Shown here: piece by piece, positions 3,211-19,399 of the stretch | How the letters are laid out: every line of letters begins with the position of its first letter | Position numbering within the stretch: position 1 is the first letter of the stretch | Assembly (NCBI GenBank): GCA_964633415.1 | Contig: CAZWFY010000003.1 | Coordinates: forward strand, 12,460-76,459 | Length of the DNA: 64,000 nucleotides | Direction of reading: 5' to 3' | Origin: an uncultured Clostridia bacterium | GTDB taxonomy: Bacteria > Acidobacteriota > Aminicenantia > UBA2199 | Made by a program: the position numbers and the translations under genes | The notes under the pieces: model-generated | The model's input: the letters and a program-made list of their open reading frames with translations, nothing else | Told to the model about the DNA's origin: nothing | The model's database searches: none

Positions 3211-4619
3211 AATATTGCCCCGAGTGTAATCGTTTTATTCCGCAAAAAAAATATATTTGCAGTCGTTGCGGATCATCCGGAATTTCAGATTTTATTTTAT
3301 TAAACAGAGAAAAAAAAGAGATTGATAAAATTATTCTATTTGTAGAATTACTAAAATTTGATGATTGTGAATATAAGATTATTGAAATTCTTGGGACCGG
3401 TGGATATGGAATAATTTTGAAAGTGGAAAGTGTTGAAAGAAAAAAATTTTATGCTCTTAAACTTCCGCTCTCATTCAAAAATATGTTTACAAACAGTGGA
3501 GGATATTCCGAAGAGGAGTTAAAAGGTTCTGATGAATCGGTTGAAAGTGAAATATCAATTCTCGAAAAATTTAGTGGAGAGAGATTGTTAAAATTGGAAG
3601 GAACAGGTGAGTTTGTTTGCCGGAATGGGAAGCTGGAGGGGAAATTTAAGGGAATCCTTCTTGAATTAGCAATTGGGACACTGAAGGACCTTATACTAAT
3701 GGAGTCGCGGGGAAAGGTTAAGATAGGGTTTAATGAAAAAATAGAAATATCGAGACAGATCATCGAAGATCTTCAATATTTACATTTAAGAAATACTGTT
3801 CATAGAGATATTGCCCTTGAGAATATCTTTATTGTTGATAGAGAGAATAAAATTAACTTTGTGCTTGGGGATTTCGGGACTTCAAAAGTCAGAAAGATTG
3901 TAAAGAACAGTTCAACAACCAAAATTATCGGTAAGGAAAAATATCTTGATCCGGCAAGGTTTATAAAAAAATACAGGACAGATCCGAGAATTGATATGTT
4001 TACTGCAGGAATTGTCATTACTGAAATTTTTATAGGGGATTTATGGGACAATATCATATTTGAACCACTTTCAGAGATGAATTTCGAGGAAGATTTTTTA
4101 AAAAATTATGTTTCAAGCCATCTTGATAAAAAATTTATAAGATTTATTGCAAAATCTTTAAAACCTGAAATAGAAAAGAGATATAGAAATACAGATGAGA
4201 TGAAAAAAAAATTTGAAAAACTTGTGAAATCTGTAAGAAAACGAAAACAGTCGATAAAAATCAGGAAAGATATAAAACTTCTTTACAATATAAAAATTCC
4301 ATGGGAAGAAAAAACAGGAAACAGAGAAAGGATTGTAGATTATGAAAATCACTGTAAGTTAAGTTTTGATGCTGATGAAAAGTTGGTGATCAACTTTAAA
4401 GGTGTCAGTATATCAAAGGTTATTTTGAAGAATACTCCGTTAATTAATATATCGAATTCAAAAAACAGTATAGAGATATCAATTGATAGAGATTTCGTAA
4501 AAGAGAGTTTGAGGATATTTTCGAAAAAGCATTATGACAAGGATAAAGGAATTCTCTATTTTCAAAATAACTTGAGAATTATCTATATTCTGTCTATGAC
4601 CAGATACAGGAGATATTAG
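3207..4619 (+). CDS. Hanks-type protein kinase with N-terminal zinc ribbon
   Basis: CPEC...CSRC ribbon; Gly loop LGTGGYG; YALKL lysine; HRDIALEN; DFG. TTG start overlaps upstream TGA. Confidence 0.88.
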   Translation: MKYCPECNRFIPQKKYICSRCGSSGISDFILLNREKKEIDKIILFVELLKFDDCEYKIIEILGTGGYGIILKVESVERKKFYALKLPLSFKNMFTNSGGYSEEELKGSDESVESEISILEKFSGERLLKLEGTGEFVCRNGKLEGKFKGILLELAIGTLKDLILMESRGKVKIGFNEKIEISRQIIEDLQYLHLRNTVHRDIALENIFIVDRENKINFVLGDFGTSKVRKIVKNSSTTKIIGKEKYLDPARFIKKYRTDPRIDMFTAGIVITEIFIGDLWDNIIFEPLSEMNFEEDFLKNYVSSHLDKKFIRFIAKSLKPEIEKRYRNTDEMKKKFEKLVKSVRKRKQSIKIRKDIKLLYNIKIPWEEKTGNRERIVDYENHCKLSFDADEKLVINFKGVSISKVILKNTPLINISNSKNSIEISIDRDFVKESLRIFSKKHYDKDKGILYFQNNLRIIYILSMTRYRRY

Positions 4620-5146
4620 TGAAGGAAAAATTTCTAAGAAAAAAATATAAAAGTTATCGGAAATTTTTCAGACTGTTGAAAAAATCCGGAATGTTTAAAG
4701 CGGTAATTTATGACGGAGAAAGTTTTAATGAATATTGCTACCCCGGAATAAGAATGGATTCATGGAAAGCAGAGCTGATAGTTCTTTTTATTCTTGTCTT
4801 AACTTTGGTATTAGTTCTTGAAATGAAAACCGTAGTACGTTTTGACTTGGCATATAATATCAGCGGAAGGATTAAGATTGAGAACAGGGTTGATAGAAAC
4901 GGTATATCAAATCTACATAAAGCTGTTATAAACAATAAGGAAAAATTTGTTAAAAAGATAGTTCAATATGGTGCTGACATTAATTCCACTGATGAGTATG
5001 GTTGGACACCTCTTCACTGGGCGAAGTTTCTCAAGAGATCAAAAATATCGGAATTTCTTATCAATCATGGTGCTCTATCTGACTTTCCTTCTGAAAAAGA
5101 TTGGTTTAAGTTTAAAAAAGGTACAACTCCCGATAGTATTAATTGA
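4619..5146 (+). CDS. Membrane-anchored ankyrin repeat protein
   Basis: TM segment LIVLFILVLTLVLVL, then NGISNLHKAV...GADIN and YGWTPLHWA...LINHGA ankyrin repeats. Confidence 0.85.
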   Translation: MKEKFLRKKYKSYRKFFRLLKKSGMFKAVIYDGESFNEYCYPGIRMDSWKAELIVLFILVLTLVLVLEMKTVVRFDLAYNISGRIKIENRVDRNGISNLHKAVINNKEKFVKKIVQYGADINSTDEYGWTPLHWAKFLKRSKISEFLINHGALSDFPSEKDWFKFKKGTTPDSIN

Positions 5147-5192
5147 TTATTTGAATTTAACTCTTTTCTTGAAAGATAGGAAAAAGTAAATG

Positions 5193-5225
5193 TATACACA
5201 ACCCCCTGGACGGGGGTTGTGTGTA
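5193..5225. terminator. Rho-independent, probably bidirectional terminator
   Basis: TATACACAACCCCC-TGGAC-GGGGGTTGTGTGTA, 14-bp stem with one G-U, between the convergent ankyrin and csp genes; short T-runs nearby on both strands. Confidence 0.8.
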
Positions 5226-5239
5226 ATGTTTTTAGTAGT

Positions 5240-5440
5240 CTATATTTTTACTACATTAGCTGCATAGTCACCCTTTTCATTCTGACGAATTTCAAATTCG
5301 ACCTGCTGCCCTTCATCTAACGATTTAAATCCGTCACCCTGGATCTCACTATGGTGCACAAAGATATCCTTGCTGCCTTCCATTTCGATAAATCCAAATC
5401 CTTTCTGAGGATCAAACCATTTTACTGTTCCGTTAGCCAT
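5240..5440 (-). CDS. cspA: Cold-shock protein (CSD)
   Basis: [18 protein letters not shown]...DIFVHHS (RNP1/RNP2); SD AGGAGG. Confidence 0.97.
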
Positions 5441-5555
5441 ATTTCTAACCTCCTTGTAAATTTAAAAGTAAATAGAGGTAGAAATTAAAACTTCAATAAA
5501 AAATAATTTTTGATTGGTCATTTTTATTATCTCTCACCTGTACTTACAAAATAAA

Positions 5556-5584
5556 ATTATATCAAATTGTTTTTTCTTTGTCAA
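5556..5584 (-). promoter_or_regulatory. Sigma70 promoter of csp gene
   Basis: Minus strand TTGACA-N17-TATAAT (perfect consensus), giving a ~110-nt 5' UTR typical of csp mRNAs. Confidence 0.85.
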
Positions 5585-5654
5585 AAATTTGATTTTTTTC
5601 TTGATTTCTTCAAATTATAGTTTAAAATAAAATAATAAGTACAAGGAGGAGGGA

Positions 5655-6044
5655 ATGAAAAGAGTTGTTTTATATTTTTCGATTTTTTTATTGGTTTTTG
5701 GGGTTGTTTCATTTCAGGGTTGCAAAAAAAGTGGAGATGATGAAAACATTGACGCTAATGCAGGTGTTGTAGGAACATGGAATCTTAGTATTACTTTTAA
5801 AAACAATTCTGTTGTTAAAAGAGTTATTACTTTTGCAGGAACAGCCGCCGAGGGAAAATTTTCGGATGATCTCGGTGATTCCGGAACATACAGGGTTGGT
5901 GATGTTGCAATTTATTTTACAAGAATCGCAAAGACAACAGGTGTTATTCAATATTTTATCGGAATAATTGCCGATAATAATAATATGTCCGGAACATTTA
6001 TCGGTACCGATACCGGAACAGGGACTTGGTCGGCAACAAGGTAA
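5655..6044 (+). CDS. Lipoprotein, lipocalin-like beta fold
   Basis: SD AGGAGG; lipobox FQG-C; VVGTWNL strand motif and beta-rich body. Confidence 0.7.
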   Translation: MKRVVLYFSIFLLVFGVVSFQGCKKSGDDENIDANAGVVGTWNLSITFKNNSVVKRVITFAGTAAEGKFSDDLGDSGTYRVGDVAIYFTRIAKTTGVIQYFIGIIADNNNMSGTFIGTDTGTGTWSATR

Positions 6045-8707: not shown

Positions 8708-10318
8708 TTATTTGATTTTGACCTGGATAAAATCGGTTGCTATCTTACCGCTTATCATATCCTTTGCATCAATAACAAATTCATATCTACCTTTGCAAAT
8801 CCAATTAAACCCCATATTTAGATTTATTTCGGGTTTTGATGCAGATAATATTTTCTCTTTGTCAAAGATTGATATATCTTGCAAATTACTTATTCTGATC
8901 CTGAGACTTATCTGTCCGAAAGTTTGTTTATTAACTATCTTCATAAGAAATCCGTCTATTTTCATAGACAATTTTCTGTTTGAAAAACTCATATCCTTAA
9001 TTTTTATTTCGGAATTTTCATTAACATATTGAGATACGGTATTTTTCTTTGTGAATTCGGATCTTATATTATCATCGTATGCAAGTTTACATTTTTTTCT
9101 GTTAACTTTTATCTTAATTTTTTTCAGTTTTTCATTCTCTTTCGGCTCATAATTAAGTATGTAATAGACATCCTTTTTTTTTACGATTTTTGAAAGTGCT
9201 TCAGTTATGTTGTCAGATGCGATAAGCTCTCCGCCTGTCTTTTTTGTCAAGCTTCTTAAATTGTTTTCAAGGTCGGTTGATATTTTTTTGAACTCAATAT
9301 CCTTGCTGAATGTCTCTAAAGAAGATCTTATGAATACAGAATGAAAAGTTGCACCGACTTTAGTGAACATTTTTGTGATCTCTTCGGTTGGGAATCCTTT
9401 CGCAATATCCATCTCTTCTTTTAAATCGACAATCTGTCTGGAGACTATTCTTGACATACTGACGGTTTCGGGATTATTACTTGATTGCCATTTGTAGAGA
9501 AGTGATTGAAGCATTCTCATCAATTCTCCGGTAATTATTATTTTCGGGAACATCTCCTGTTGAAAAAAACTGATTACCCATTTCTCGTTTTTAATCTTTT
9601 GCAAATGTTTGGAAAAAAGAATATAGCTTTTCACATCGGGAATAAGATATTTGCTTTTATAATCTTTCCAGAGAATTGTATATTTTCTTAAAAATTCCGA
9701 AACAAATCTTGTATCATTCCTTAATTCAACGGGATTTTTTCCGCCTGTAGTAGTTTTTAGAGTGAGTTCAAATTTTGTTATATCTATTGCCTTTTCCAAT
9801 TCATTAAAATAGAGGATCATTCTTGTTCTGGCTTTTTGACTCTCCTCTTTTAGAAAGTGATTAAGTTTAGTTCTTATTGATTCTTTGTCGGCAATATTTC
9901 TAAAGAATTCAGTCCTGTTATTAATGAAAACAAGTAGTGAATCATTTTTTCTTAGGATTTGGTCAAGTAGATAGTCAACACCTTTTCTGATTTTATTTGA
10001 AAAATTTGTAATATTCATTGCAAGAATAAAATATCTTGAAGGAACTTGAGATTTTTTGGCTTCCAATCCGATGTTTTGGGTTTCTATAATTTTTCTCTTT
10101 ATATTGAAACCGGCAATTTCTTTTCTTTTACCGTTAATGAAAAGTTTAAAATCCTCTTTTTTTAAATTGTCAACTATTTTTCCTTTACTGAAAACTCTTA
10201 CCGGAATTTCAATATTGATTACGGAAACAGTCTCTCGTATTTTATTGTCTTTTCGGTCAGAATAAAGAGAGGCCAAAAACAGTATTATTGCTAACAATAT
10301 ATATAAAATCTTTTTCAT
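8708..10318 (-). CDS. VWFA-related (Acidobacterial-type) exported protein, degenerate MIDAS
   Basis: Signal peptide; VINIEIPVRVFSKGKIVDNLKKEDFKLF N-terminal motif; TKKTGGE and YYILNYEP late motifs; DxSxS replaced by NITNFS. Confidence 0.72.
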   Translation of the reverse strand: MKKILYILLAIILFLASLYSDRKDNKIRETVSVINIEIPVRVFSKGKIVDNLKKEDFKLFINGKRKEIAGFNIKRKIIETQNIGLEAKKSQVPSRYFILAMNITNFSNKIRKGVDYLLDQILRKNDSLLVFINNRTEFFRNIADKESIRTKLNHFLKEESQKARTRMILYFNELEKAIDITKFELTLKTTTGGKNPVELRNDTRFVSEFLRKYTILWKDYKSKYLIPDVKSYILFSKHLQKIKNEKWVISFFQQEMFPKIIITGELMRMLQSLLYKWQSSNNPETVSMSRIVSRQIVDLKEEMDIAKGFPTEEITKMFTKVGATFHSVFIRSSLETFSKDIEFKKISTDLENNLRSLTKKTGGELIASDNITEALSKIVKKKDVYYILNYEPKENEKLKKIKIKVNRKKCKLAYDDNIRSEFTKKNTVSQYVNENSEIKIKDMSFSNRKLSMKIDGFLMKIVNKQTFGQISLRIRISNLQDISIFDKEKILSASKPEINLNMGFNWICKGRYEFVIDAKDMISGKIATDFIQVKIK

Positions 10319-10327
10319 GTTTTCTCC

Positions 10328-11485
10328 TTAATAATAATAACCTTTAACAGTTCTTATTTTATAACCTCTTTTTTTGTTAAGTTTTACTTCTATCTTTCTG
10401 AATGTTTTAATCTTCCCTTTTGAAACAGGTGTGAAATATAATAGATATTTAGCTTGAATATCCCTTCTGATCTTTTTATACATTCTCTTTATATCTTTTA
10501 CATCATCAAAGAAGAAGGGGATTCCTCCCGAAGATTTAGAAATCTTTTCAAGCAGTGTTTTATATTGTTCGTCGGAATATGAATAGGTTCTTTTTCCTAT
10601 AGAGTAAATTTCTAAGTTTGATTTTTCGGCTTTTTTCATTAATGTATAAGGGTCAATAAAAGAGCTGTTATCCTCTCCATCCGAAAATACTACAATTATA
10701 TTCCTTCCGGGAATTCCTTTGACCAGATTTATGCAATGTGCTATTGCATCATAAAGAGCGGTCGCACCAAAGGGAAAAGCAAGTGAAATAGAGTTCACAA
10801 GATCATTAATATTATCGGTAAAATCCGTATCTTCAATAACTTCATGATTAAAGAAAATCACAATTGCCTGATCGTTTTTTTTCATAAGATCTTCAAGAAA
10901 CATTTTCGCAGCTTCTTTAATATATCCCATTTTATCTTTCATGGAAGAGCTTATATCAATAAGAAGTACAAGATGAGAGTTCCCCATCTGATTTTTGATT
11001 CGGTTTAAGATAGAGATCTCAATTGGTCTGCCATTCTCTATCAGTGTGAAATCTTCTTTTTTTAGCCCCTTAACATAATTCCCATGCCGGTCTATAACTG
11101 CGATTGGAATTGCCATCTCAACGACATTTACGCTCTGGACGTCATCAAAATGATATGATTTTATCTCTTTCCTAAGTAGAACTCCTCTAAAATCTCTTAA
11201 GATAACTTTTAACTTTCTGTTTTTCGGAGATTTCCCGAAATTATAATAGAATGAGAATGGAGGATTTTGAATCTCTTTTAAATATTTCCCGTTAAGATAA
11301 AATTCTACGGAATGGATCTCTTTCGTTTCGATACCGGTTATCTTGACTTCAATCTTTCTTTTCCCGACCCAGACATCTTCGGCATCCGGTGAAATAAATT
11401 TAATATCTATATTTTCCCGGGATAGAGAGAAAGAAAAAAGTATAAAAAGACCGATAGTTATTATAAAAAATTTTTTTATATTCAT
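10328..11485 (-). CDS. VWA domain protein with N-terminal Ig-like domain
   Basis: Signal peptide; Ig-like VEFYLNG...PPFSFYY; VKGLKKEDFTLIENG; MIDAS DISSS..T(ALYDA)..SDGED; C-terminal KIRTVKGYY. Confidence 0.9.
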   Translation of the reverse strand: MNIKKFFIITIGLFILFSFSLSRENIDIKFISPDAEDVWVGKRKIEVKITGIETKEIHSVEFYLNGKYLKEIQNPPFSFYYNFGKSPKNRKLKVILRDFRGVLLRKEIKSYHFDDVQSVNVVEMAIPIAVIDRHGNYVKGLKKEDFTLIENGRPIEISILNRIKNQMGNSHLVLLIDISSSMKDKMGYIKEAAKMFLEDLMKKNDQAIVIFFNHEVIEDTDFTDNINDLVNSISLAFPFGATALYDAIAHCINLVKGIPGRNIIVVFSDGEDNSSFIDPYTLMKKAEKSNLEIYSIGKRTYSYSDEQYKTLLEKISKSSGGIPFFFDDVKDIKRMYKKIRRDIQAKYLLYFTPVSKGKIKTFRKIEVKLNKKRGYKIRTVKGYYY

Positions 11486-14400
11486 CTTATCCTCACATAA
11501 CCTCTTCTTTTATATTTCTTGAGTATTTTTTTGAAGTTTGAATTATTCATAATATTAAATATAAAGTAAGTCGTAAAAATATCTTTTTCATAATTCTGCT
11601 GATAGAATCTCGGAAATGATGATAGCAGATAATTAAACAGGAAGTGACCGTAAAGAGCTGTAGAATATTTTTTCTTGGATGCAAGGTAAGAGAGTCTCAT
11701 TTTAAATTCATTGAACTCCTCACCGAGAAAATAACCGGATTTAAAAATGTCAGCTTCCTCAGGCGGAAAAAGGTCTCTCCATTTCGGTCTCAAAGAGCCT
11801 AAACAGTTATAATATATATTTCCGAAATTATCCTTTTCATGTAGAATTTCCAAGCTGAGCGGGAGTTGAAAATATTTTTTCAAACGATCCTTTTGAGAAA
11901 ATATTTCGAGACATTTATTACAATCAATAAGGGATTTTCCTATTTTAAAGTATTGATTATAGAAGAGCAACAATTCATCATTTTTTCCCTCAAGATATTC
12001 GGAAGATTTTTTATATGAGTATCCGGAAAACAATTTCCCGATCTTTTCCGAAAGGAGTTTGTTAATCATTTTATTCGATTTGGCTTTTTCCAGTAGCTCA
12101 AGTCCGTACTCTATCAGAAGGGATATATATTCGGGAAAATATTTTAAATTAACATATGGATAAAATTGAAGAACATTGTAAAGCAGAGATTGAACCAATT
12201 GACTGTCAAAAATTATATTACCTGCAAGCATCTGATCTTTCCACACAGATGCAAATAGAAGGTTAAGCCTTGATAATCCTCCTTTAAGTCTAAATCCGGG
12301 AATACTTTTAAGCGTGAGGCTGGATTCCGGTCTGCCGGAATAATTCCATGGAGTGTGGTTACTTGATGTTCTGAAATCATGTAGTTTCACAAGGTTTGGG
12401 TTAATGAACATTCGCAATCTTTCCGATTTTGCATTGATAGCATATGCAATTGTAACGAGAAAATTTTTCAAGTGTGGAAAAATATATTTTTTCCTGAATC
12501 GATTTAAAATATTTTGCAGTTTCTTTTCATTTCCGTCTTTTTTTAAACCAATCCCAAGTTTTTTCAGATCCCTGTTTAACTCCTTCCTGGAATATGTCAT
12601 TACCCTTCTTTTTATAAAATCCGGAGCTTCATCACTGATTTCAGGGTGAGGGATTATCTGGAATAGTTTAATGATATTTTTAAAGGCTCTGCTTCTTGTG
12701 TTTATATCAGAAGATAGAATGGCACTGAACAATTGCTCGAATTCAAAAATAGAGGATAGTCTGATCACTTCCTGGGAATTAATAATGCTGTTAATTGATT
12801 TTTTAGTTATATTATTTAATTGGAATTCATACTCTTCATCTTCAATGTCAATCATCCTATTATTCAATCCTTGTAAGAGAAATTCAATAAATCTGTTGTC
12901 GATATAATTTTTTTTTAACGGGATATTAAAATTTTTACCGAACCATTCAAACATATCGTGAATAAATGTAGATTTATTAAGAGGTATTTTCAGTAATTCG
13001 TTTATTGTGCGGTCAAAATCATTTCCGTTAGTGTGATTTTTTGTGACAAATGCAAGTATTTCGAAATATGATTGATAAACAGCTGAAAAGTCAGCCCTGT
13101 CCGAAAGATTTTTTGTTTGAAGTTTTTTTACCCAGTTGAACATATTTATTGCGGTTTCCCAATCCTTAATATCAATTTTATCAATAAAATCTATCAGTAT
13201 GTTGTAATCTTTGTATCCGTGAAAGAATAGTCTTAATGTATTTTCATCTAAAAGTTCAGGACGATCAAGAAATTTTGAGTAAATTGAAATAATCTTTTTG
13301 ACTGCCGGAAATTCATCTTTGTATGAATTTTTCTCAAGCACGGTTTTAATAAACAGAAATGTGAGCTTATTTGCGTCATCAATATTTTTAATTTTTTTTG
13401 TCAGTTTCTTCTTGTTTAATATTCTTATCCAATTTTTTATATTCCCCGGGAAATATATTTTTCCGTCCCTCTCTTCCAAAGCATAGAGAAGATTGAAAAA
13501 CCCCTGCTTTCTTAATCTGGCAAATCTGTTGTCGGTCAATTTTTCATTCTTACTAAGTTTCACTAAGGATAAAATTTTTTTCATTTTAATGGGATCGAAG
13601 TTAAAGAATAAGGATTTAAGCTTTTTATTTGATTGCCAAAAAGATATTGAGTAGAGATAGTTAAGCTTCCCGTCTAAAGATGTAGTAATATTTTTCAGGA
13701 ATTTAAATTTCTCCTTCGAATAATCGGCATCGGCTATAATTGACCAGAATTTAACCGCTTTGTCTCCTCCGGGAATGTTAAGCATGTTATTCTTAACCCT
13801 TAAAGAACCTGACAGATTAAACAGTCCCATTAAAAATTTCCCGTCTTCATAGATAGTTTTCCATGGATTTTTAATGCTCTTTGTTTTGAGGTTTGAGATA
13901 TAATCTATTTCCGAATCCGATAATCTGAAAATAATTCCAAGTAAGATAGAGAGTCTTTTTTCCCGAACTATTTTTAATAAAAAATTATCTTTGTTTAGTG
14001 AAAAACCGGTTATATTATTTAAAAAGTCAAAATTTATATTTGCAGGGATATCGGATGTGATGTGCCGGTAGAAAATACGTCTTGTTTTATTGATCTGCTT
14101 TTCAAGAGATTTAATGTTTAGGTTTATAAATTTATGATAATCAACTATTCCCGTGGAATTATCAGACTCTATATTATAACCTTCTCCGGATTTCTCCATT
14201 ATCAATCCAAGGTAATTCATTAGTTTAATTCCGTTCCGCAGCCCCTTTCTTTTTGAGATATTAATTGTAAACATATTTTTCTCGAACAGAAATTTCTTTT
14301 TTATCAACTGATCAATTCTTTTTTCCATTAATATGATATCCATGATCTTTTTTCTCACACCGTTTTTTATCAGGTTTTTTGTCGGGGATTCTGAAAATAT

Positions 14401-14583
14401 AAGAAGATCGTTGAAATGATACAAAAAGTCTTTTGTAGGTAGATTATAATAAAAGTTTATATACCTTGAAAGTAAAGTTGCATTTCCCGGAATTTTGATA
14501 TTTTCGGTTTTAGTCTCGGACATGAGAGTAAGTTGAAATAGGGAAATTATTATAATTATTTTAAGTATATTTTTTTTAAACAT
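11482..14583 (-). CDS. Large exported helical hypothetical protein (1033 aa)
   Basis: Intact long ORF with signal peptide; ATGA overlap with the VWA gene; no recognisable catalytic motif. Confidence 0.75.
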   Translation of the reverse strand: MFKKNILKIIIIISLFQLTLMSETKTENIKIPGNATLLSRYINFYYNLPTKDFLYHFNDLLIFSESPTKNLIKNGVRKKIMDIILMEKRIDQLIKKKFLFEKNMFTINISKRKGLRNGIKLMNYLGLIMEKSGEGYNIESDNSTGIVDYHKFINLNIKSLEKQINKTRRIFYRHITSDIPANINFDFLNNITGFSLNKDNFLLKIVREKRLSILLGIIFRLSDSEIDYISNLKTKSIKNPWKTIYEDGKFLMGLFNLSGSLRVKNNMLNIPGGDKAVKFWSIIADADYSKEKFKFLKNITTSLDGKLNYLYSISFWQSNKKLKSLFFNFDPIKMKKILSLVKLSKNEKLTDNRFARLRKQGFFNLLYALEERDGKIYFPGNIKNWIRILNKKKLTKKIKNIDDANKLTFLFIKTVLEKNSYKDEFPAVKKIISIYSKFLDRPELLDENTLRLFFHGYKDYNILIDFIDKIDIKDWETAINMFNWVKKLQTKNLSDRADFSAVYQSYFEILAFVTKNHTNGNDFDRTINELLKIPLNKSTFIHDMFEWFGKNFNIPLKKNYIDNRFIEFLLQGLNNRMIDIEDEEYEFQLNNITKKSINSIINSQEVIRLSSIFEFEQLFSAILSSDINTRSRAFKNIIKLFQIIPHPEISDEAPDFIKRRVMTYSRKELNRDLKKLGIGLKKDGNEKKLQNILNRFRKKYIFPHLKNFLVTIAYAINAKSERLRMFINPNLVKLHDFRTSSNHTPWNYSGRPESSLTLKSIPGFRLKGGLSRLNLLFASVWKDQMLAGNIIFDSQLVQSLLYNVLQFYPYVNLKYFPEYISLLIEYGLELLEKAKSNKMINKLLSEKIGKLFSGYSYKKSSEYLEGKNDELLLFYNQYFKIGKSLIDCNKCLEIFSQKDRLKKYFQLPLSLEILHEKDNFGNIYYNCLGSLRPKWRDLFPPEEADIFKSGYFLGEEFNEFKMRLSYLASKKKYSTALYGHFLFNYLLSSFPRFYQQNYEKDIFTTYFIFNIMNNSNFKKILKKYKRRGYVRIR

Positions 14584-14675
14584 TTTTGCTCCACTTCATT
14601 AATACGAATTAAAGATTAAAAACGGATTGAATATCGCTTCTAAAATAAAGAGTAATTCTATATAATGTATTAGTA

Positions 14676-17486
14676 ATGTCAATAAAAAAAAAAAAATTTA
14701 TTTTTATAAGTTTAATACTTATGTTTTTCTCCGTTTCTTGTAAAAAAAAAATAGATATTAAAACCGAACCGAAATTCGTTATAAGTGAAAATGAGAAGGC
14801 GGCAACAATTTTTGAAGATGAAGACTCATATAAGGCTTCAAATTTTTTTTTGAAAAGAGCGATAGATGATTACCTTAAAGAAGGACATTGGGAAAGAGCC
14901 ATTCAAAACTATATTAAGCTTGGAAATGGATTTTCAAGATTAAAAAATTTTAAATCCGCACTTAAATATTTGAATATGGGATTGAATTTATCGATGGAAC
15001 ATTCCGGATATAAGTATTCTATTCTTGCTAAGAGCTATCATAAAATAGCCTTCGGGTTTATGAAGGAGAGAAAGTTTGAAAAGGCTGTAGAGATATATAA
15101 GAAAGCTCTTAAATTGAAAAAATCAATTTACGGGAAATATCATAGTGAAGTTTCCAGAACATACAACAGCCTTTCTTTGGCATACAGAAACATGGGTGAT
15201 AGTAAAAATGCAGATAAATATTATTACAAATCTCTTTTGATAAAATTACACCATTTTGAGAAAATTGATGATAATTTTTTCAAGGGATTTAAGTTTGTTA
15301 ATCGAATAAGTGAAAAGAGAAAGCTGTATAAAGAGGCAAAAAAAGTTTTAAACAAATCATTGAAAGTCTATCTGGAAACTTTTGGAGGTTATAGTAATCT
15401 AACTGCTGTTATTTTTGAAAATATCGGAATAATATATGCAATGGAAGGTGCATTTGACAGATCATTGGAGAATTTCAGAAATGCTTTGAGAATAAGGATA
15501 AATCTTTTTGGAGAGAATAGTTTTGAGGCAGCTGATACACTTCATGATATGGGAGTAGTTTTTTCCCTCCGAGGAAATAACCGTGAAGCTAAAAAATATT
15601 TACAGGAATCTCTTAAGATAAAAATATCAAGAGTCGGTGAATTTCATCTCTTCACGGCCGACACCTATTTTCAACTGGGAAAAATTTGTTATTTAAAGGG
15701 TGATATTGACCATGCCCTTAAGTATTTTCAAAATTCTTTATATGCCATGAATAAAAAATTTTCAAAATGCAAATATTGTTCCGCTCAGTATGGAAATTTT
15801 AAAAAATCAGAATTTACCAAAGATATAATAAATGTACTGAAGTATAAAGCTAAATCCCTGGTGGCAAAATCGGAAGGAGGTAATAAAAAGTTTGAAATCC
15901 TTATATCGGCTCAAAAAACCTATATTTTTCTTGTTAAAATCATTGAAATATTAAAAGAGAGGTTTAGAAGAGGGGAGAATAACAGTGAATTCAATAAGAC
16001 AGCCCAGAAAACAATAAAAGATGCGATTGATATATCTTATCGATTATTTTCAATCAGTGGTGAAAACAGATATAAGAAAGAGGCTTTTTCCCTTTCCGAA
16101 AAGAGTAAAGCCTCTTTGCTTTTAAGCATGATACATGAATCCGAAGCAAAGCAATCTTTCGGTATTCCTGAAAAGTTGTTAATTAGAGAAAAATTTTTGC
16201 AAAAAAAAATATCAGATTTTCAACTCTATAATGCCAAGAAGAGATATCGAAATAATAGACTTTCAGAAGGTAATAAAGATCCGGAAGAGCTGGATTATTA
16301 TAAGACACAAAGAGAGTATAGAGTCCTATTAAAAAAATTTGAGAAGGATTACAAAAATTATTTTATGGTGAAATATGAAAAGAAAATTGTTGATCCGGAT
16401 CTGTTTAGGATGAGATTGAATAAAAACGAGGCTGTAATAGAATATCTTCTCGGAGCAAACTATATTTATACTTTTTTTCTTTCAAATGATGATTTTTTAT
16501 TTCAACGTTTTGAAATACCTGATGATTTTAAAAGTTTAATCAATACATTGTATATATCAATAGAAAAGATAGAAGAGGATATGTTTATTGATTCTTCTAA
16601 GGAGCTTTATAGGATTTTGATAAAGCCCTTCTTGAAAAATCTGTCCGGAAAGGAAAAGTTGGTGATAATTCCTCATGGAAAGCTATTTTTATTGCCTTTT
16701 GAAGTGTTAATACCGGATGATGTGGATTTTTCCTCATTCTCTGACTTGAAATATTTAGTGAAACGTTTTTCGATATCATATAACTATTCATTGACCATCC
16801 GGGATTATATTCATAGCAGAAAAGTGGAAAATAACGGAGGATTTATCGGATATGCTCCGGTTTTTGATTGGGCGGTTTCCGCTTTACCTTATTTAATGAA
16901 GAAGGAGTTGCCGAAACTGCCTGCATCGGATATAGAATTGAGAAGAATTATTGATCTGTTCAGAATGAAAAAATTGAAAGCAGAAGGTTTCTTTTATGAA
17001 GATGCAACGGAAAATAGTCTTAAGAAAAATTTATCTACTAAAGATTATGCATTTGTTCATATTGCAACTCATACGATAATAAACAGAGAAAAACCCAATT
17101 TGTCAGGATTGATTTTCTCAACCGAAGAGGAGAAACTCGGAGGAGATGACGGGATTTTATTTTCCGGAGAGATATATAATATGAAATTCAAAACTAATCT
17201 TCTTGTTCTGTCAAGTTGTGAGAGCGGTGTAGGAAAATTGATGGAGGGAGAGGGAGTCTTGACTTTAAGCAGAGGCTTTTTGTATGCAGGAGCTAATAAT
17301 ATTATCTTTTCTCTTTTGAAAGTTGAGGACAAATCAACCGGAAAGTTGATGATAAATTTTTATAGAAATGTTCTGAATGGAAAAGGGTTCGCCGAATCTC
17401 TGAGATCGGCTAAATTAAAGCTCGTAACCGACCCTTATACGGCTTTTCCAAAATATTGGGGCGGTTTTATTTTATTGGGGGAATAG
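14676..17486 (+). CDS. TPR-CHAT (caspase HetF-associated) protease, predicted lipoprotein
   Basis: Lipobox FSVS-C; KLC-type TPRs (GKYHSEVSRTYNSL, GENSFEAADTLHDMG); CHAT motifs LVIIPHGKLFLLPFEVL, VHIATH, LVLSSCESG, YWGGFILLG. Confidence 0.92.
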   Translation: MSIKKKKFIFISLILMFFSVSCKKKIDIKTEPKFVISENEKAATIFEDEDSYKASNFFLKRAIDDYLKEGHWERAIQNYIKLGNGFSRLKNFKSALKYLNMGLNLSMEHSGYKYSILAKSYHKIAFGFMKERKFEKAVEIYKKALKLKKSIYGKYHSEVSRTYNSLSLAYRNMGDSKNADKYYYKSLLIKLHHFEKIDDNFFKGFKFVNRISEKRKLYKEAKKVLNKSLKVYLETFGGYSNLTAVIFENIGIIYAMEGAFDRSLENFRNALRIRINLFGENSFEAADTLHDMGVVFSLRGNNREAKKYLQESLKIKISRVGEFHLFTADTYFQLGKICYLKGDIDHALKYFQNSLYAMNKKFSKCKYCSAQYGNFKKSEFTKDIINVLKYKAKSLVAKSEGGNKKFEILISAQKTYIFLVKIIEILKERFRRGENNSEFNKTAQKTIKDAIDISYRLFSISGENRYKKEAFSLSEKSKASLLLSMIHESEAKQSFGIPEKLLIREKFLQKKISDFQLYNAKKRYRNNRLSEGNKDPEELDYYKTQREYRVLLKKFEKDYKNYFMVKYEKKIVDPDLFRMRLNKNEAVIEYLLGANYIYTFFLSNDDFLFQRFEIPDDFKSLINTLYISIEKIEEDMFIDSSKELYRILIKPFLKNLSGKEKLVIIPHGKLFLLPFEVLIPDDVDFSSFSDLKYLVKRFSISYNYSLTIRDYIHSRKVENNGGFIGYAPVFDWAVSALPYLMKKELPKLPASDIELRRIIDLFRMKKLKAEGFFYEDATENSLKKNLSTKDYAFVHIATHTIINREKPNLSGLIFSTEEEKLGGDDGILFSGEIYNMKFKTNLLVLSSCESGVGKLMEGEGVLTLSRGFLYAGANNIIFSLLKVEDKSTGKLMINFYRNVLNGKGFAESLRSAKLKLVTDPYTAFPKYWGGFILLGE

Positions 17487-18246
17487 GATATGGGGCTATC
17501 TTAAATTTACCGATATAGTAGAGATTGTTTTTATCGGTAAGTTTCCAATAATACAATCCCGGAAGAAGTTTCTTGTTCAAGATAAAGTTATTTGCCGAAA
17601 CATTAAACGTAAAGACAATAAAATTTTTATTATCAACTATTGAAAGTGTGAGCTCTTTTGAATCTATTCTCCCCCAACTGAATTTCACATTGTCATTGCC
17701 TCTGACGAAAGAGTGAAAGGAGTTTTGCGAAGAAAGTGAACTTCTCTCTATGCCGTTAGTCATTGCTTCCATATTCGGATTAGGGTCAAATCTCAATGAG
17801 CTTTTAACTTTTGAATTGATCTCAGGGTTTTTCTTTTCGGTTTTAGCTTTATTGAGTATAAATGAAATTTTACTCTTTTTATTGTTAGTTTCCGTCAAAG
17901 TTCTTTTTTTTGAGATTTTCGTTGTGTAAAACACCGATAGAAAAAGAATAAGAATGAAAGTTGCTGCAATTTGACCTATATATCTTTTCTTAATAAGGTT
18001 GTCCGTGTAGGATTTTATTGCATTTTTTTTCTCTAAACTACTTCTTTTTGTTGGAGAAGAAGTGATAATAGTGGATGAAAGAATATCCATAATTTTATCT
18101 TTACAGGCTGGACATTTGTCAAGATGATCATCGACTTCAGGAGTAAGTTCTACTTTTGCTGTTTTTCTGATGTCATCAATTATGAGTGAAATTGAATAAT
18201 CATTTAAATGACCGTTTTTTAAAAAATAATCTTCTCTATGAAGCAT
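17467..18246 (-). CDS. Putative transmembrane anti-sigma factor
   Basis: N-terminal HLDKCPAC (zf-HC-like), TM IAATFILILFLSVFY, C-terminal beta domain (FSW...PGLYYWKL); overlaps the sigma gene. Confidence 0.72.
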   Translation of the reverse strand: MLHREDYFLKNGHLNDYSISLIIDDIRKTAKVELTPEVDDHLDKCPACKDKIMDILSSTIITSSPTKRSSLEKKNAIKSYTDNLIKKRYIGQIAATFILILFLSVFYTTKISKKRTLTETNNKKSKISFILNKAKTEKKNPEINSKVKSSLRFDPNPNMEAMTNGIERSSLSSQNSFHSFVRGNDNVKFSWGRIDSKELTLSIVDNKNFIVFTFNVSANNFILNKKLLPGLYYWKLTDKNNLYYIGKFKIAPYPIPPIK

Positions 18247-19237
18247 TCTTCATTCTCCCGGTTTGTTTGTTTCTGTTAAAAAAGATTAGAAAAAGATCTG
18301 GGATGTTTTTAGAGTTGTAAGGATTATTAGGATGTGTTTTATTCATATGGTCCTTTATTTCTCCGATTTTGTCTGATATCCATTTTCTTAATGAATCCGG
18401 TCTAAGTTTAGGAGAAGAATACCTACTGTAAACAGGAGTGATTATTTCAAAAATTTTCCTTTCGTAAAGTGTTGAAAAATCCGAGGACAGAATATCTATA
18501 TCACTCTTACTGCAATTTTCAAAGCAGGCAAGAATTTCATCCTTCGAAGGCTTCTGATTATATTTCATCTTAAGAGTTAAAATGATTTTTGCCTGATTTT
18601 TTCTATAAAGAGAAAGAAGCATTCTCAATTTTTGTAACTCTTCATCTATAATGAGATTTGTAAAACCCTCCTCTCTTTGTCTTCCGGCTATATTGAGAAT
18701 ATTCACTTCTTTTGCTACCTTTTTCTCCTCTTTTTTTTCTTTTCTAAGCATATCTATATATATATTACGTATTGTAACCATAAAGTAGGACGTAAAAGTC
18801 GGATTTTGTTTTTCGCTGAAAGAAAATACTGATTTAAACTTTTCTATTTTATTTTTTAAAACGATCGTTATTATATCATGAACGATATCTTCAACTTCAT
18901 TTTTATTAAAATGTTTTTGTGAAATATATCTCACTATTAGATTTCTGTATAGAAGAACAAGAACATTCGGATGGAATTTTATTAAAGAATTAAGATTTAA
19001 AGCTTTTTTTACATCTTCTTCTTTTACCTTAAAATATTGCCGATTATCATTTTTGTCTTGTTTTTCTTCTTTTTGTTTTGTTATTTTCAGATAAAGTCCG
19101 GATAGTAACGGAACAAGGTCAGGGAAAATAGTGATCGGGAATCTCTCTTCCGGATATAATTGTTCCGTGATTATTTTAATAAGCTTTTCCATGCTATCTT
19201 TCTGATATTTTTTATCCGGATTTTCTGTATTTTTCAT
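18236..19237 (-). CDS. Sigma70/ECF-like RNA polymerase sigma factor, atypically long
   Basis: Region 2-like EVEDIVHDII...FTSYFMVTIRNIYIDMLRK; divergent region 4-like C-terminus; precedes anti-sigma. Confidence 0.72.
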   Translation of the reverse strand: MKNTENPDKKYQKDSMEKLIKIITEQLYPEERFPITIFPDLVPLLSGLYLKITKQKEEKQDKNDNRQYFKVKEEDVKKALNLNSLIKFHPNVLVLLYRNLIVRYISQKHFNKNEVEDIVHDIITIVLKNKIEKFKSVFSFSEKQNPTFTSYFMVTIRNIYIDMLRKEKKEEKKVAKEVNILNIAGRQREEGFTNLIIDEELQKLRMLLSLYRKNQAKIILTLKMKYNQKPSKDEILACFENCSKSDIDILSSDFSTLYERKIFEIITPVYSRYSSPKLRPDSLRKWISDKIGEIKDHMNKTHPNNPYNSKNIPDLFLIFFNRNKQTGRMKNAS

Positions 19238-19399
19238 TTGGGATGATCATTATATCATAATATGCAGATGCATCTAAATCAAAATGAAAAAAAGAGAAGT
19301 TTTATAAAGATTTAATTGCAAAAGTGAAAAGTTTGCTATAGAATTGGATTTGATTTTTTTTATAATGATAAAGCAAATTAATTCCGGAGGTTTTCTGGT

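Follow-up and report, generated by a model that had tools for sequence, protein, structure and literature searches.

The closest known system to the module described here is DdvA/DdvS of Myxococcus xanthus. DdvA is a transmembrane anti-sigma factor of the ZAS type, the periplasmic domain of which is itself a TPR-CHAT domain, for which cleavage of its own tether has been proposed (PMC11506125). This tether comprises 49 amino acids, removal of the TPR-CHAT part leads to RseP-dependent degradation of DdvA, the CHAT active site is incomplete in the resting state, and proteolysis itself is so far hypothetical (PMC11506125). The window analysed here, a stretch of 64,000 nucleotides from an uncultured hydrothermal-vent bacterium (Aminicenantes), contains a comparable set of genes. 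As in DdvA/DdvS (PMC11506125; PMC6061681), a putative ECF-type sigma factor is accompanied by a single-pass anti-sigma-like protein with a zinc-binding (ZAS) three-helix cytoplasmic domain, a flexible periplasmic tether of about 50 amino acids and a predicted periplasmic TPR-CHAT protein with a His/Cys dyad, for which a role as site-1 protease in trans, acting before RseP, can be proposed. The TPR-CHAT part is fused to the anti-sigma factor in DdvA, whereas it is a separate lipoprotein here; moreover, our anti-sigma-like protein ends in a small Ig-like domain, the sigma-like protein carries long extensions at both termini, an exported-protein operon rather than a CBASS/CRISPR defence island is the likely regulon, and the hosts are Aminicenantes and an Ignavibacteriaceae-like clade instead of Myxococcota. 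The resemblance is an architectural one, because the CHAT half did not match any solved structure by sequence and hence neither DdvA nor Csx29. Our preferred but tentative reading is that of an envelope-to-cytoplasm signalling module, a split version of DdvA/DdvS, in which cleavage of the anti-sigma factor by the CHAT protein would free the sigma factor.

The initial annotation had taken type III-E Craspase as precedent. Craspase, consisting of Cas7-11, Csx29 (TPR-CHAT), Csx30, Csx31 and CASP-sigma (PMC10028731), also links a TPR-CHAT protease genetically with an ECF-like sigma factor and a sigma-sequestering protein, with cleavage as the proposed activation. It is, however, cytoplasmic, RNA-guided and CRISPR-encoded, whereas the protease here has a lipoprotein signal, and DdvA/DdvS is the better precedent. 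The supposed independence from CRISPR held: there is no Cas gene near the trio, CRISPR or known defence genes were not found at the locus, and the sigma-like protein reached 16.9 bits with the CAS_III-E_sigma model (cut-off 100).

The proposed scheme follows the classical regulated intramembrane proteolysis of RseA-DegS-RseP and RsiW-PrsW-RasP in combining a single-pass anti-sigma factor, a periplasmic cut by a site-1 protease that a signal activates and a subsequent M50 site-2 protease. What differs is the enzyme proposed for site 1: instead of a serine or metallo protease, it would be a cysteine protease of caspase fold that carries a TPR sensor, and its gene adjoins that of the substrate. 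According to PMC8999054, which refers to Huang et al. and Casas-Pastor et al., genes for CHAT, subtilase or carboxypeptidase proteins lie near those of ECF54-type sigma factors. A conserved CHAT gene beside an ECF sigma gene and proposed proteolytic control are common features, but the ECF54 type is presented there as actinobacterial and without recognisable anti-sigma factor, whereas here a ZAS anti-sigma-like protein is the best-conserved partner of CHAT. FecA-FecR-FecI and the SusC-like systems of Bacteroides likewise connect an outer sensor, via an inner-membrane anti-sigma factor and its periplasmic domain, with genes for exported or surface proteins. The outer component here would be the TPR-CHAT lipoprotein, not a TonB-dependent transducer, and profile searches detected neither a TonB box nor a FecR domain in the module proteins.

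Gene layout and conservation

The trio comprises the following features:

14676..17486, + strand: TPR-CHAT lipoprotein, 936 aa (ORF; Pfam CHAT and TPR families)
17467..18246, - strand: single-pass ZAS-type anti-sigma-like protein, 259 aa
18236..19237, - strand: putative divergent ECF-like sigma factor, 333 aa
17467..17486, no strand: overlap of the convergent 3' ends, 20 nt

Every element listed in the initial annotation (ORFs, lipobox, TPRs, dyad, overlap, anti-sigma-like gene and the sigma-like gene coupled to it) was found again at its position, and the trio is a conserved gene module. Synteny comparison showed the sigma gene, followed by the anti-sigma gene and facing the CHAT gene, at 19 of 24 Aminicenantes loci, with a 3' gap between anti-sigma and CHAT genes of -20 to +13 nt in 17 of these 19. 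As the trio-bearing loci share only 25-50% protein identity with one another, this conservation is far beyond chance. The orthologue sets comprised 20 CHAT, 24 anti-sigma and 23 sigma sequences. Of 41 related genomes, 11 encode an anti-sigma orthologue, and these are precisely the ones with a full-length CHAT orthologue; all 11 also encode the 1033-aa protein described below, as do two incomplete genomes.

The convergent anti-sigma/TPR-CHAT pair was also present in all five distant contigs with enough flank, and the module thus recurs in a second phylum-level lineage. Four of them (L049, L081, L082, L083) belong to an Ignavibacteriaceae-like clade; L075 is an unplaced contig bearing a randomly sampled remote family member, with the pair convergent there, too. 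The CHAT proteins of the distant contigs are about 30-36% identical to that of the window over 580-910 aa. A sigma-like gene lies upstream of the pair on all four Ignavibacteriaceae-like contigs, but homology of its product to the Aminicenantes sigma-like protein was not detectable (probability 1-3%). The anti-sigma/CHAT pair is therefore the conserved unit, and the deepest one of the module.

At a small number of loci (L038, L041, possibly L029 and L037) the neighbouring CHAT gene is missing, which counts against the proposed mechanism. Together with the convergent orientation, which precludes co-transcription, this would fit a sigma/anti-sigma pair and a CHAT lipoprotein that are mere neighbours serving unrelated pathways. 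We regard such a coincidence as highly improbable, as presence and absence match perfectly over the 41 genomes and the genes remain adjacent in two phylum-level lineages with protein identities of 25-35%.

The 20-nt overlap is exact, and the identical value recurs at 10 of the 19 Aminicenantes trio loci and at L081. This recurrence is due to the anti-sigma stop codon being the reverse complement of the conserved C-terminal Phe-Ile codons of CHAT (TTTATT). It had been suggested that the overlap could provide antisense feedback, and read-through transcripts might indeed pair or collide, leading to mutual antisense control or transcriptional interference of protease and anti-sigma genes. The tail-to-tail packing (-20 to +24 nt), kept across two lineages, and the failure to find a terminator or any significant RNA structure, including a stable hairpin, at the junction would suit such a role. 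But the exact length of the overlap follows from the conserved CHAT codons, and nine loci have no overlap, so that the feedback idea found no support. We consider a regulatory function improbable; it would, moreover, supplement the protein-level mechanisms rather than replace them.

The TPR-CHAT lipoprotein and its putative substrate

The TPR-CHAT gene and its upstream region show these features:

14661..14666, + strand: TATAAT -10 box, 15 nt upstream of the CHAT start
14676..14741, + strand: lipoprotein signal peptide ending at lipobox Cys22
14853..15755, + strand: kinesin-light-chain-like TPR array (Pfam TPR; PDB sequence matches)
16593..17483, + strand: CHAT caspase-fold domain, with catalytic His799 (17070-17072) and Cys848 (17217-17219)

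A TATAAT hexamer is located 9-25 nt in front of the CHAT start codon at 16 of 20 loci, which points to a constitutively made transcript with a short leader. The protein starts with MSIKKKKFIFISLILMFFSVS-C22. All 20 orthologues have n- and h-regions as well as a (G/A/S/N)-C junction, Cys22 being invariant, and the genome encodes LspA and Omp85. These signals support the export predicted in the initial annotation. The four Ignavibacteriaceae-like CHAT proteins have hydrophobic Sec-type N-termini. TPR_12 and related Pfam TPR families cover residues ~60-360, with PDB sequence matches to KLC TPR domains (E~1e-14). The CHAT domain (residues 640-936) was detected with E=7.8e-57 and 193 bits (cut-off 24).

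The dyad is intact. It lies in the motifs VHIATH(799)T and LSSC(848)ESG, and H795, H799 and C848 are invariant across the 20 orthologues. In the entire Aminicenantes clade, Thr or Ser takes the place of the Gly that usually comes after the catalytic His, which counts against the proposed mechanism. Accordingly, the TPR-CHAT protein might be a non-proteolytic envelope receptor or scaffold, analogous to RcsF or a TonB-dependent transducer, that binds the Ig-like ectodomain of the anti-sigma-like protein with ligand-dependent release or engagement. The dyad would then be weakly active or kept for another reason, and the anti-sigma factor would be inactivated by a conventional protease (DegS/Prc type) or by a conformational change. 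The incomplete resting active site of DdvA and a tether long enough (45-76 aa) to span the periplasm agree with this. On the other hand, neither His nor Cys varies even at ~30% identity and between two phylum-level lineages, a degree of conservation unusual for a pseudo-enzyme, and the canonical HG is retained in the Ignavibacteriaceae-like orthologues. A receptor without proteolytic function thus appears rather unlikely.

Its putative substrate, the anti-sigma-like protein, is composed as follows:

18103..18210, - strand: cytoplasmic zinc-binding anti-sigma domain, H13...H41-x3-C45-x2-C48, three-helix bundle
17923..17979, - strand: transmembrane helix, residues 90-108 (hydropathy)
17782..17922, - strand: variable, polar, disordered periplasmic tether, 47 aa
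17743..17781, - strand: juxta-domain motif NPNLExM..S..R, residues 156-168
17494..17709, - strand: periplasmic Ig/FN3-like beta-sandwich with conserved PGLYYWK...GKF signature

As described in the initial annotation, the protein combines the HxxxCxxC motif and a single transmembrane helix with a beta-domain, Ig-like in the AF2 model. In the family alignment, H13, C45 and C48 are invariant and H41 is near-invariant; the domain was modelled by AF2 with helices at residues 16-26, 36-44 and 46-62 (pLDDT ~90). Pfam gave no match above cut-off, with zf-HC2 appearing sub-threshold in 4 of 24 members, while an Ignavibacteriaceae-like homologue is labelled 'zf-HC2 domain-containing protein' by NCBI. 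The transmembrane helix is the hydropathy maximum in 24 of 24 orthologues, and the count of Lys and Arg (94 on its N-terminal, 56 on its C-terminal side) is consistent with an N-in topology. The beta-sandwich (residues ~180-251, pLDDT ~90) matched FN3/Ig domains in Foldseek with E~1e-3; for the protein as a whole no sequence or fold match was found in PDB.

The tether varies between 45 and 76 aa among orthologues, and its residues 120-147 have a pLDDT below 50 in the AF2 model. It parallels the 49-aa linker of DdvA, the cleavage target proposed there, and is a candidate cleavage region. In the adjacent motif N156, N158, E160, M162 and R168 are invariant among 24 sequences, and the Ignavibacteriaceae-like proteins have a related one, LENF(V/I)xRNVRSE. 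Docking or cleavage may take place at this motif.

The sigma-like protein and the divergent operon

19249..19278, - strand: candidate sigma-70-type promoter of the sigma/anti-sigma operon, TTTAGA-18-TATAAT with extended -10, TGATATAAT (consensus scan)
14603..14626, - strand: candidate ECF-type promoter TCCGTTTTT-N-CGTA, 42 nt in front of the ATG of the 1033-aa protein
11482..14583, - strand: exported 1033-aa protein, divergent from CHAT, putative first gene of the output operon
10328..11485, - strand: exported VWA protein, overlapping the upstream gene by 4 nt (Pfam VWA, TIGR03436)
8708..10318, - strand: exported 536-aa protein, third gene in this orientation, without Pfam match

The sigma ORF overlaps the anti-sigma start by 11 nt, in line with the translational coupling noted initially; the sigma assignment itself stays below curated cut-offs. 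Regions sigma2 and sigma4 lie at residues ~96-251, flanked by an N-terminal extension of ~90 aa with a conserved LYPxExFPxxLFPDL motif and a C-terminal one of ~80 aa. Sigma70_r2 was hit with E=2.8e-4 and 21 bits (cut-off 24) and TIGR02937 with E=6e-7 and 29 bits (cut-off 42.9). The AF2 model is all-helical (pLDDT 83), and neither a sequence nor a fold match was found in PDB. Nevertheless, the protein looks like a very divergent ECF-like sigma factor, because 15 of 23 orthologues match Sigma70_r2, hhalign aligns the family with nine canonical ECFs of the same genome (probability 95.2%, E=2.8e-8) and the genomic context agrees. That the sigma- and anti-sigma-like proteins both stay under curated HMM cut-offs and lack a PDB match counts against the proposed mechanism. 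Upstream of the sigma gene, TGnTATAAA/T was present at 10 of 24 loci and an ECF-like motif at none of the 24.

The 1033-aa protein gave no match in Pfam and NCBIfam searches, no fold could be assigned, and homologues occur in Aminicenantes or Acidobacteriota MAGs only. The VWA protein (Pfam VWA 2.2e-14, TIGR03436 1.1e-46) is encoded syntenically at five loci (L015, L016, L019, L020, L023), and the gene of the 536-aa protein probably belongs to the same operon. CCG[AT]TT-N13/14-CGTA, with ECF-like spacing, occurs upstream of the divergent gene at 13 loci. It is also found in front of unlinked homologues of the 1033-aa gene (G003, G020, G005) and thus tracks this gene even away from the trio; the strict form has 3 matches in the 2.5-Mb genome compared to ~1 expected. 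The operon is therefore a likely output of the module via this motif, as judged from the sequence. Since a near-consensus sigma-70 promoter is also present upstream of the operon (consensus scan), the motif could instead be an operator or leader element. The Ignavibacteriaceae-like loci share a motif of their own, TGAAAGTTTTT..AACTATAG, in front of divergent T9SS cargo genes.

CHAT is always back-to-back with a gene for a large exported protein, the family of which differs by lineage, and CHAT, cargo and anti-sigma genes co-occur. Clan-CD peptidases often mature secreted proteins. The substrate of CHAT might thus be this cargo, which comprises the 1033-aa protein and the VWA proteins in the window and proteins with T9SS tails in the Ignavibacteriaceae-like clade. 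In that case, the ectodomain of the anti-sigma factor would monitor protease or cargo by binding, uncut by CHAT, and may compete for the TPR groove, thereby tuning cargo transcription; any site-1 cleavage would fall to another periplasmic protease. However, in several genomes the cargo gene is relocated while CHAT still adjoins the anti-sigma gene, this pair is the deepest conserved unit, and the tether, long and disordered, looks like the substrate of a protease. We consider cargo processing a less probable explanation, albeit the most serious competitor of anti-sigma cleavage.

Proposed mechanism

With cleavage of the anti-sigma factor as the preferred reading, the sigma/anti-sigma operon and the CHAT gene would probably be expressed constitutively from housekeeping-type promoters. 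The zinc-binding three-helix domain would hold the ECF-like sigma factor at the inner membrane, with the Ig-like ectodomain at the tip of the flexible 45-76-residue tether. We infer, as did the initial annotation, that the envelope-anchored lipoprotein senses a ligand, possibly a protein or peptide cue, via its TPR array. Its caspase-type His/Cys dyad would then clip the tether or the NPNLExM..S..R segment as site-1 protease. Removal of the remaining stub by an RseP-type site-2 protease would free the sigma factor, which may transcribe the 1033-aa/VWA operon from the CCGTTT-N13/14-CGTA promoter. Since protease and anti-sigma factor are two separate proteins in this version of DdvA/DdvS, the proposed step, in which the protease frees the sigma factor, is directly testable. 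A homologue of M50/RseP, the site-2 protease type, is encoded in the genome.

Products of the three genes

The module consists of a sigma-like and an anti-sigma-like gene facing the gene of a TPR-CHAT lipoprotein:

14676-17486, plus strand: TPR-CHAT protein of 936 aa, matching Pfam CHAT and TPR families
17467-18246, minus strand: anti-sigma-like protein of 259 aa, with an 11-nt overlap between its start and the sigma-like stop
18236-19237, minus strand: sigma-like protein of 333 aa with sub-threshold matches to sigma profiles

The region (G+C about 30%) belongs to contig C3 of a 2.5-Mb metagenome-assembled genome that is 94% complete. The presence of genes for LspA, Omp85-family proteins and an RseP-type M50 protease in this genome indicates a diderm organism with lipoprotein processing and a site-2 protease. 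DNA runs containing the locus came from hydrothermal-vent and epibiont metagenomes; the search of sequencing runs found no RNA runs with it.

In the TPR-CHAT protein, the Pfam CHAT domain (PF12770) covers residues 640-936 (E=7.8e-57, 193.4 bits versus a cut-off of 24, profile positions 3-289 of 289) and several Pfam TPR families match residues ~60-360. Searched by sequence against the PDB, the whole protein matched kinesin-light-chain-type TPR domains alone, and a profile of the CHAT half (C-terminal 560 positions) found no chain at E<=1. Cys22 of the lipobox, H795, H799 and C848 are retained without exception in 20 orthologues of 30-54% identity. With H799 in the motif ATH-T and C848 in LSSCESG the His/Cys dyad is intact, and the protein is a predicted CHAT peptidase of caspase fold. 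The residue following the catalytic His is Thr or Ser, not Gly, in all 20 orthologues of the Aminicenantes clade; the CHAT relatives of the second, Ignavibacteriaceae-like lineage described below retain His-Gly. That the protein is a non-catalytic sensor, signalling without cleavage, appears improbable to us beside the invariant dyad.

In all 20 orthologues the n-region carries positive charge, the core is hydrophobic and the Cys is preceded by a small residue; predicted lipoprotein export is thus conserved. The signal peptide with its lipobox Cys, together with LspA in the genome, is as expected of a Sec/SPII lipoprotein. The description of an exported TPR-CHAT lipoprotein with a His/Cys dyad in the initial annotation was thus confirmed by the domain matches and the conserved residues. 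In 16 of 20 loci a TATAAT sequence (14661-14666 in the window) precedes the CHAT start codon by 9-25 nt, which suggests a very short or absent 5' leader.

No Pfam family was found for the 259-aa protein. The zinc-finger model zf-HC2 (PF13490) scored 12 bits versus a cut-off of 22.2; 4 of the 24 family members gave sub-threshold matches (best E=0.013), and one Ignavibacteriaceae-like homologue is labelled 'zf-HC2 domain-containing' by NCBI. As the curated models miss the protein, its assignment as anti-sigma factor rests on motif, fold, topology and gene coupling. H13, C45 and C48 are invariant in an alignment of 24 sequences, at least 90% of which also have H41; these residues form a predicted HHCC zinc site with the classic H-x3-C-x2-C spacing. 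There is a single hydrophobic helix; the Lys+Arg counts, 94 on the N-terminal and 56 on the C-terminal side of it, agree with an N-in topology. A polar periplasmic tether of 45-76 residues, variable in sequence, is followed by the segment NPNLExM..S..R and a conserved C-terminal domain, the segment being invariant in the 24 sequences. AlphaFold2 with the family alignment (mean pLDDT 73) modelled a three-helix N-domain and a beta-sandwich (pLDDT ~90 each), the TM helix and a disordered tether. Foldseek with this model returned a generic Ig/FN3 sandwich as sole match, for the beta-sandwich, and the anti-sigma profile had no meaningful match in the PDB. Class I ZAS proteins have a helical N-domain, one TM helix and a gene coupled directly downstream of the sigma gene, and the same traits were found here; the order sigma to anti-sigma is kept in 24/24 loci. 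The HxxxCxxC transmembrane protein with a beta domain, as originally proposed, is thereby well supported.

The Ig-like domain (17494-17709) showed a sub-threshold match to the T9SS C-terminal sorting domain TIGR04183 (E=0.0099). Further hints of this type were CHU_C in two orthologues and the Foldseek match 8glk_D. A search of the window genome for Por_Secre_tail gave no matches, the positive control also remaining without a match. We dropped the idea of T9SS-CTD mimicry because these hints are too weak; the resemblance may be a coincidence between small beta-sandwiches. Genuine T9SS tails are borne by the cargo proteins adjoining the module in the Ignavibacteriaceae-like clade.

The 333-aa protein remained below the curated cut-offs (Sigma70_r2 21 bits versus 24; TIGR02937 29.2 versus 42.9). 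Nevertheless, 15 of its 23 orthologues match Sigma70_r2 at E<0.01, with no competing family, and hhalign aligned the family (alignment A3) to nine canonical ECFs of the same genome with a probability of 95.2% (E=2.8e-8). This match spans sigma2 and sigma4 (residues 96-251). Conserved extensions of ~90 aa at the N-terminus and ~80 aa at the C-terminus distinguish the protein from the compact ECF architecture (~170-200 aa). The sigma profile found no matches in the PDB; Foldseek with the whole model gave nothing at E<1, and the only sigma chains it matched were weak (probability 0.1-0.16). The most fitting description of the protein is an ECF-like sigma factor that has diverged strongly. The sigma gene of the initial annotation therefore holds at the level of family comparison and orthologues, but not by the curated Sigma70_r2 and TIGR02937 thresholds. 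Its N-terminal extension carries a strongly conserved motif, LYPxExFPxxLFPDLxxxL (window 19072-19159, residues ~27-55), which hhalign weakly aligned to a region-2.1-like segment of the Ignavibacteriaceae-like sigma-like proteins.

Occurrence of the module in Aminicenantes and in a second lineage

Scanning the genome contigs with a single sigma sequence returned nothing; the alignment-based scan of the public genome collection yielded 24 loci with the sigma gene, from Candidatus Aminicenantes/Acidobacteriota MAGs. The anti-sigma gene adjoins in all 24. In 19 of them a convergent CHAT gene lies directly downstream of the anti-sigma gene, with a 3' distance of -20 nt in 10 loci and of +1 to +13 nt in 7; two loci have wider spacings of +147 and +322 nt. 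Elsewhere, the contig ends just past the anti-sigma start (L033), there is an insertion and the CHAT gene is 7 kb away (L041), or other genes follow the anti-sigma gene with no CHAT match within the available flank (L029, L037, L038).

Among 41 related genomes, 12 contain anti-sigma homologues, one of them marginal (E 8e-4). The genomes with a full-length CHAT orthologue are exactly the 11 that have a solid anti-sigma match, the others having weak paralogues alone. The 1033-aa protein encoded divergently from CHAT is present in the same 11 and in two incomplete genomes. Exhaustive HMMER searches of metagenome proteins clustered at 50% identity detected 1,913 clusters of the anti-sigma family at E<=1e-3 and 302 at E<=1e-30; a word-indexed protein search, with 40 matches, had pointed to a tiny family. 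Within 401 sampled genomes of the phylum, matches over the full length were confined to the window's own family; one further genome there gave a weak match restricted to the N-terminus.

An outlier match (P0040) led to a second lineage, labelled Ignavibacteriaceae by NCBI. Four contigs (L049, L081, L082, L083) contain a sigma-like gene of ~200 aa, an anti-sigma homologue, a convergent TPR-CHAT gene at a 3' distance of -20 to +74 nt, and a divergently transcribed gene whose large product bears a T9SS tail. A convergent CHAT gene was likewise observed in L075, a taxonomically unplaced contig carrying a randomly sampled remote family member. The TPR-CHAT proteins of the Ignavibacteriaceae-like clade have hydrophobic Sec-type N-termini and share ~31% identity over ~900 aa with the window CHAT (E~1e-118). 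They are far closer to it than the second CHAT of the window genome itself (24% over 417 aa). The sigma-like proteins, in contrast, match canonical ECFs (probability 81%, E=1.3e-5) and gave no match to the sigma family of Aminicenantes (probability 1-3%). Since the pair is kept while the sigma factor differs, the anti-sigma ectodomain and the TPR-CHAT protein form the unit staying together. Their joint retention is the strongest comparative argument for a predicted interaction of the two.

The trio suggested initially is thus conserved in 19/24 loci and in the 11 matching genomes of the 41, and recurs in a second lineage. That the genes are mere neighbours is barely conceivable with this distribution, the few loci lacking an adjacent CHAT gene notwithstanding.

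In two of the Ignavibacteriaceae-like loci (L049:4053-7132 and L081:7037-9873) the gene calls place the TPR half and the CHAT half in two genes, 180-290 nt apart; a frameshift or an assembly error may explain this, or the gene may truly be split.

The tail-to-tail junction and the divergent operon

The CHAT and anti-sigma genes converge and share 20 nt at their 3' ends (17467-17486), exactly as the initial annotation had described. It had also proposed antisense feedback from this overlap. Beyond the usual end of the anti-sigma protein (GKFxIEK*), the first stop in its frame is the reverse complement of the CHAT Phe-Ile codons (TTTATT). The -20 overlap recurs because the anti-sigma stop falls in these conserved codons near the CHAT C-terminus, and its exact length is therefore no evidence of selection for antisense pairing. 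Consequently, we rejected antisense regulation as the reason for this length. Neither a terminator nor a stable hairpin was found at the junction (z-scores -0.8 and 0.0). What is conserved is the very tight tail-to-tail packing. Transcriptional interference between the convergent genes may occur; antisense regulation as an additional layer, for which the tight packing without a terminator or hairpin speaks, is decidedly improbable given the codon-based origin of the overlap length.

On the other side, CHAT is separated by a spacer of 92 bp from a putative output operon. A phosphonate operon flanks the trio on the side away from it. The relevant features are:

11482-14583, minus strand: gene of the 1033-aa protein (no family), the first of three co-oriented exported-protein genes divergent from CHAT, the others encoding a VWA protein (TIGR03436 at 1.1e-46) and a 536-aa protein
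14603-14626, minus strand: candidate ECF-type motif TCCGTTTTT-N-CGTA, 42 nt upstream of the ATG of the 1033-aa gene
14682-14655, minus strand: near-consensus sigma-70 promoter TTGACA-16-TAGAAT preceding the 1033-aa operon

In ten loci, CCG[AT]TT-N13/14-CGTA is located 24-46 nt upstream of the start of the 1033-aa gene; the distance is 91 nt in three others, in which this gene has moved away from CHAT. Homologues of the 1033-aa gene on other contigs of three related genomes (G003, G020, G005) are preceded by the motif, too. The distance from CCG to CGTA is 16-17 nt, a spacing typical of ECF promoters of the sigW/sigE type. We consider TCCGTTTTT-N-CGTA a candidate target promoter of the sigma factor. 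The strict form has 3 matches in the whole genome versus ~1 expected, on which ground a large regulon was rejected.

Upstream of the sigma gene, CCGTTT..CGTA is absent in 24/24 loci and sigma autoregulation was therefore rejected; an extended -10 sequence, TGnTATAAA/T, is present there in 10/24 loci. We infer from these patterns that the sensor components would be constitutive and the exported-protein operon the inducible target. Read on the opposite strand, the CHAT start context ATGTCAA provides the -35 hexamer of the sigma-70 promoter, so that both divergent promoters and the CHAT start codon interlock. As a sigma-70 promoter also precedes the 1033-aa operon, the conserved motif could alternatively be an operator or leader element.

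A different motif, TGAAAGTTTTT(C/T)(G/C)(C/T)-N-AACTATAG, was detected upstream of the divergent T9SS-tailed cargo genes of the Ignavibacteriaceae-like clade, in these regions:

L049:7133-7323, upstream region with TGAAAGTTTTT..AACTATAG
L081:9874-10071, the same motif
L082:10283-10462, the same motif
L083:9949-10071, the same motif

In L082 a near copy of it lies upstream of the sigma-like gene. The constant neighbourhood of exported cargo also bears on an alternative role of the protease: it might process the cargo proteins, with feedback on their expression. We regard this as doubtful, given that the anti-sigma ectodomain and the TPR-CHAT protein stay together as a unit. In L015, from a genome of the same genus (G001), the 1033-aa orthologue (2853-5878) consists of two overlapping fragments, and reading through them meets several in-frame stops, possibly a pseudogene or an assembly error; the trio beside it is intact.

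Relation to DdvA/DdvS and the proposed switch

CHAT caspase-fold proteases are common in bacteria and, to our knowledge, almost all of their substrates are unknown. A full-text literature search for characterised systems combining a periplasmic CHAT with a sigma factor yielded one, DdvA/DdvS of Myxococcus xanthus. DdvA is a ZAS-TM anti-sigma factor with a ~900-residue periplasmic TPR-CHAT on a flexible linker of 49 aa; its authors propose that this linker is cleaved in trans by CHAT, which would serve as site-1 protease before RseP acts (PMC11506125, PMC6061681). Whereas these parts are on one polypeptide in DdvA, the window encodes two, the TPR-CHAT being a separate, convergently encoded lipoprotein and the anti-sigma ectodomain comprising the tether and the Ig-like domain in place of the fused TPR-CHAT. 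No sequence homology between the window CHAT and DdvA was detected (C-terminal profile versus PDB chains, E<=1), and PDB sequence searches showed none of the module to DdvA, Csx29 or solved sigma/anti-sigma structures. The DdvA-type regulon is a defence island (CBASS/CRISPR), while the neighbours in the window are the VWA protein, uncharacterised exported proteins and the phosphonate operon. The module, being unfused, without detected homology and without a defence regulon, is outside the DdvA family but follows the same logic.

A reading as defence system was rejected, as PADLOC matched none of the six module proteins. The same result agrees with the CRISPR independence claimed along with the initial analogy to Craspase, the type III-E CRISPR system with the TPR-CHAT protease Csx29. 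In other respects this analogy fits less well than DdvA/DdvS, the characterised match: Craspase is cytoplasmic and Cas-dependent whereas the window CHAT carries a lipoprotein signal, and the window sigma scores 16.9 bits with the CASP-sigma model NF041236 versus a cut-off of 100. ECF54 sigma factors have CHAT genes nearby and no recognisable anti-sigma factor (PMC8999054).

The initially proposed trans-envelope protease mechanism is topologically sound and is supported by conservation, export signals and the intact dyad. For the full protease-switch model, with cleavage of the anti-sigma factor as a proposal, we see slightly less than an even chance. In a wider sense, envelope caspase-fold proteases might act as dedicated site-1 proteases of separate anti-sigma factors in a widespread extracytoplasmic ECF activation, a generalization toward which we are somewhat more reserved. 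The lineage-specific secreted cargo switched on would be VWA proteins and a giant protein in Aminicenantes and T9SS substrates in the Ignavibacteriaceae-like clade.

With protease and presumed substrate on one chain and an unknown trigger, the cleavage step of DdvA is still hypothetical. Here the two are separate proteins which can each be expressed, mutated and mixed separately, making the DdvA-type hypothesis directly testable, and the candidate output promoter is at hand as a possible reporter. If the model is true, the module would be the first system with genetically separable parts in which the mechanism hypothesised for DdvA could be proved. Confirmed cleavage would add a cysteine-protease branch to regulated intramembrane proteolysis and give a function to ~1,900 uncharacterised anti-sigma-like clusters, together with the proteases partnering them, in uncultured lineages that are abundant in the environment.

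The window genome contains a second module of the same theme, independent of the trio, on contig C16 (L024:1548-8240). Its 824-aa CHAT lipoprotein, which has a signal peptide and a Cys (LDIFC-SGK), is encoded divergently from a canonical ECF sigma factor of 187 aa. The latter is followed by a 246-aa ZAS anti-sigma factor (HYFSCDSC) that combines a TM helix with a TPR-like ectodomain, and a 956-aa exported PKD-repeat protein is encoded downstream of CHAT.
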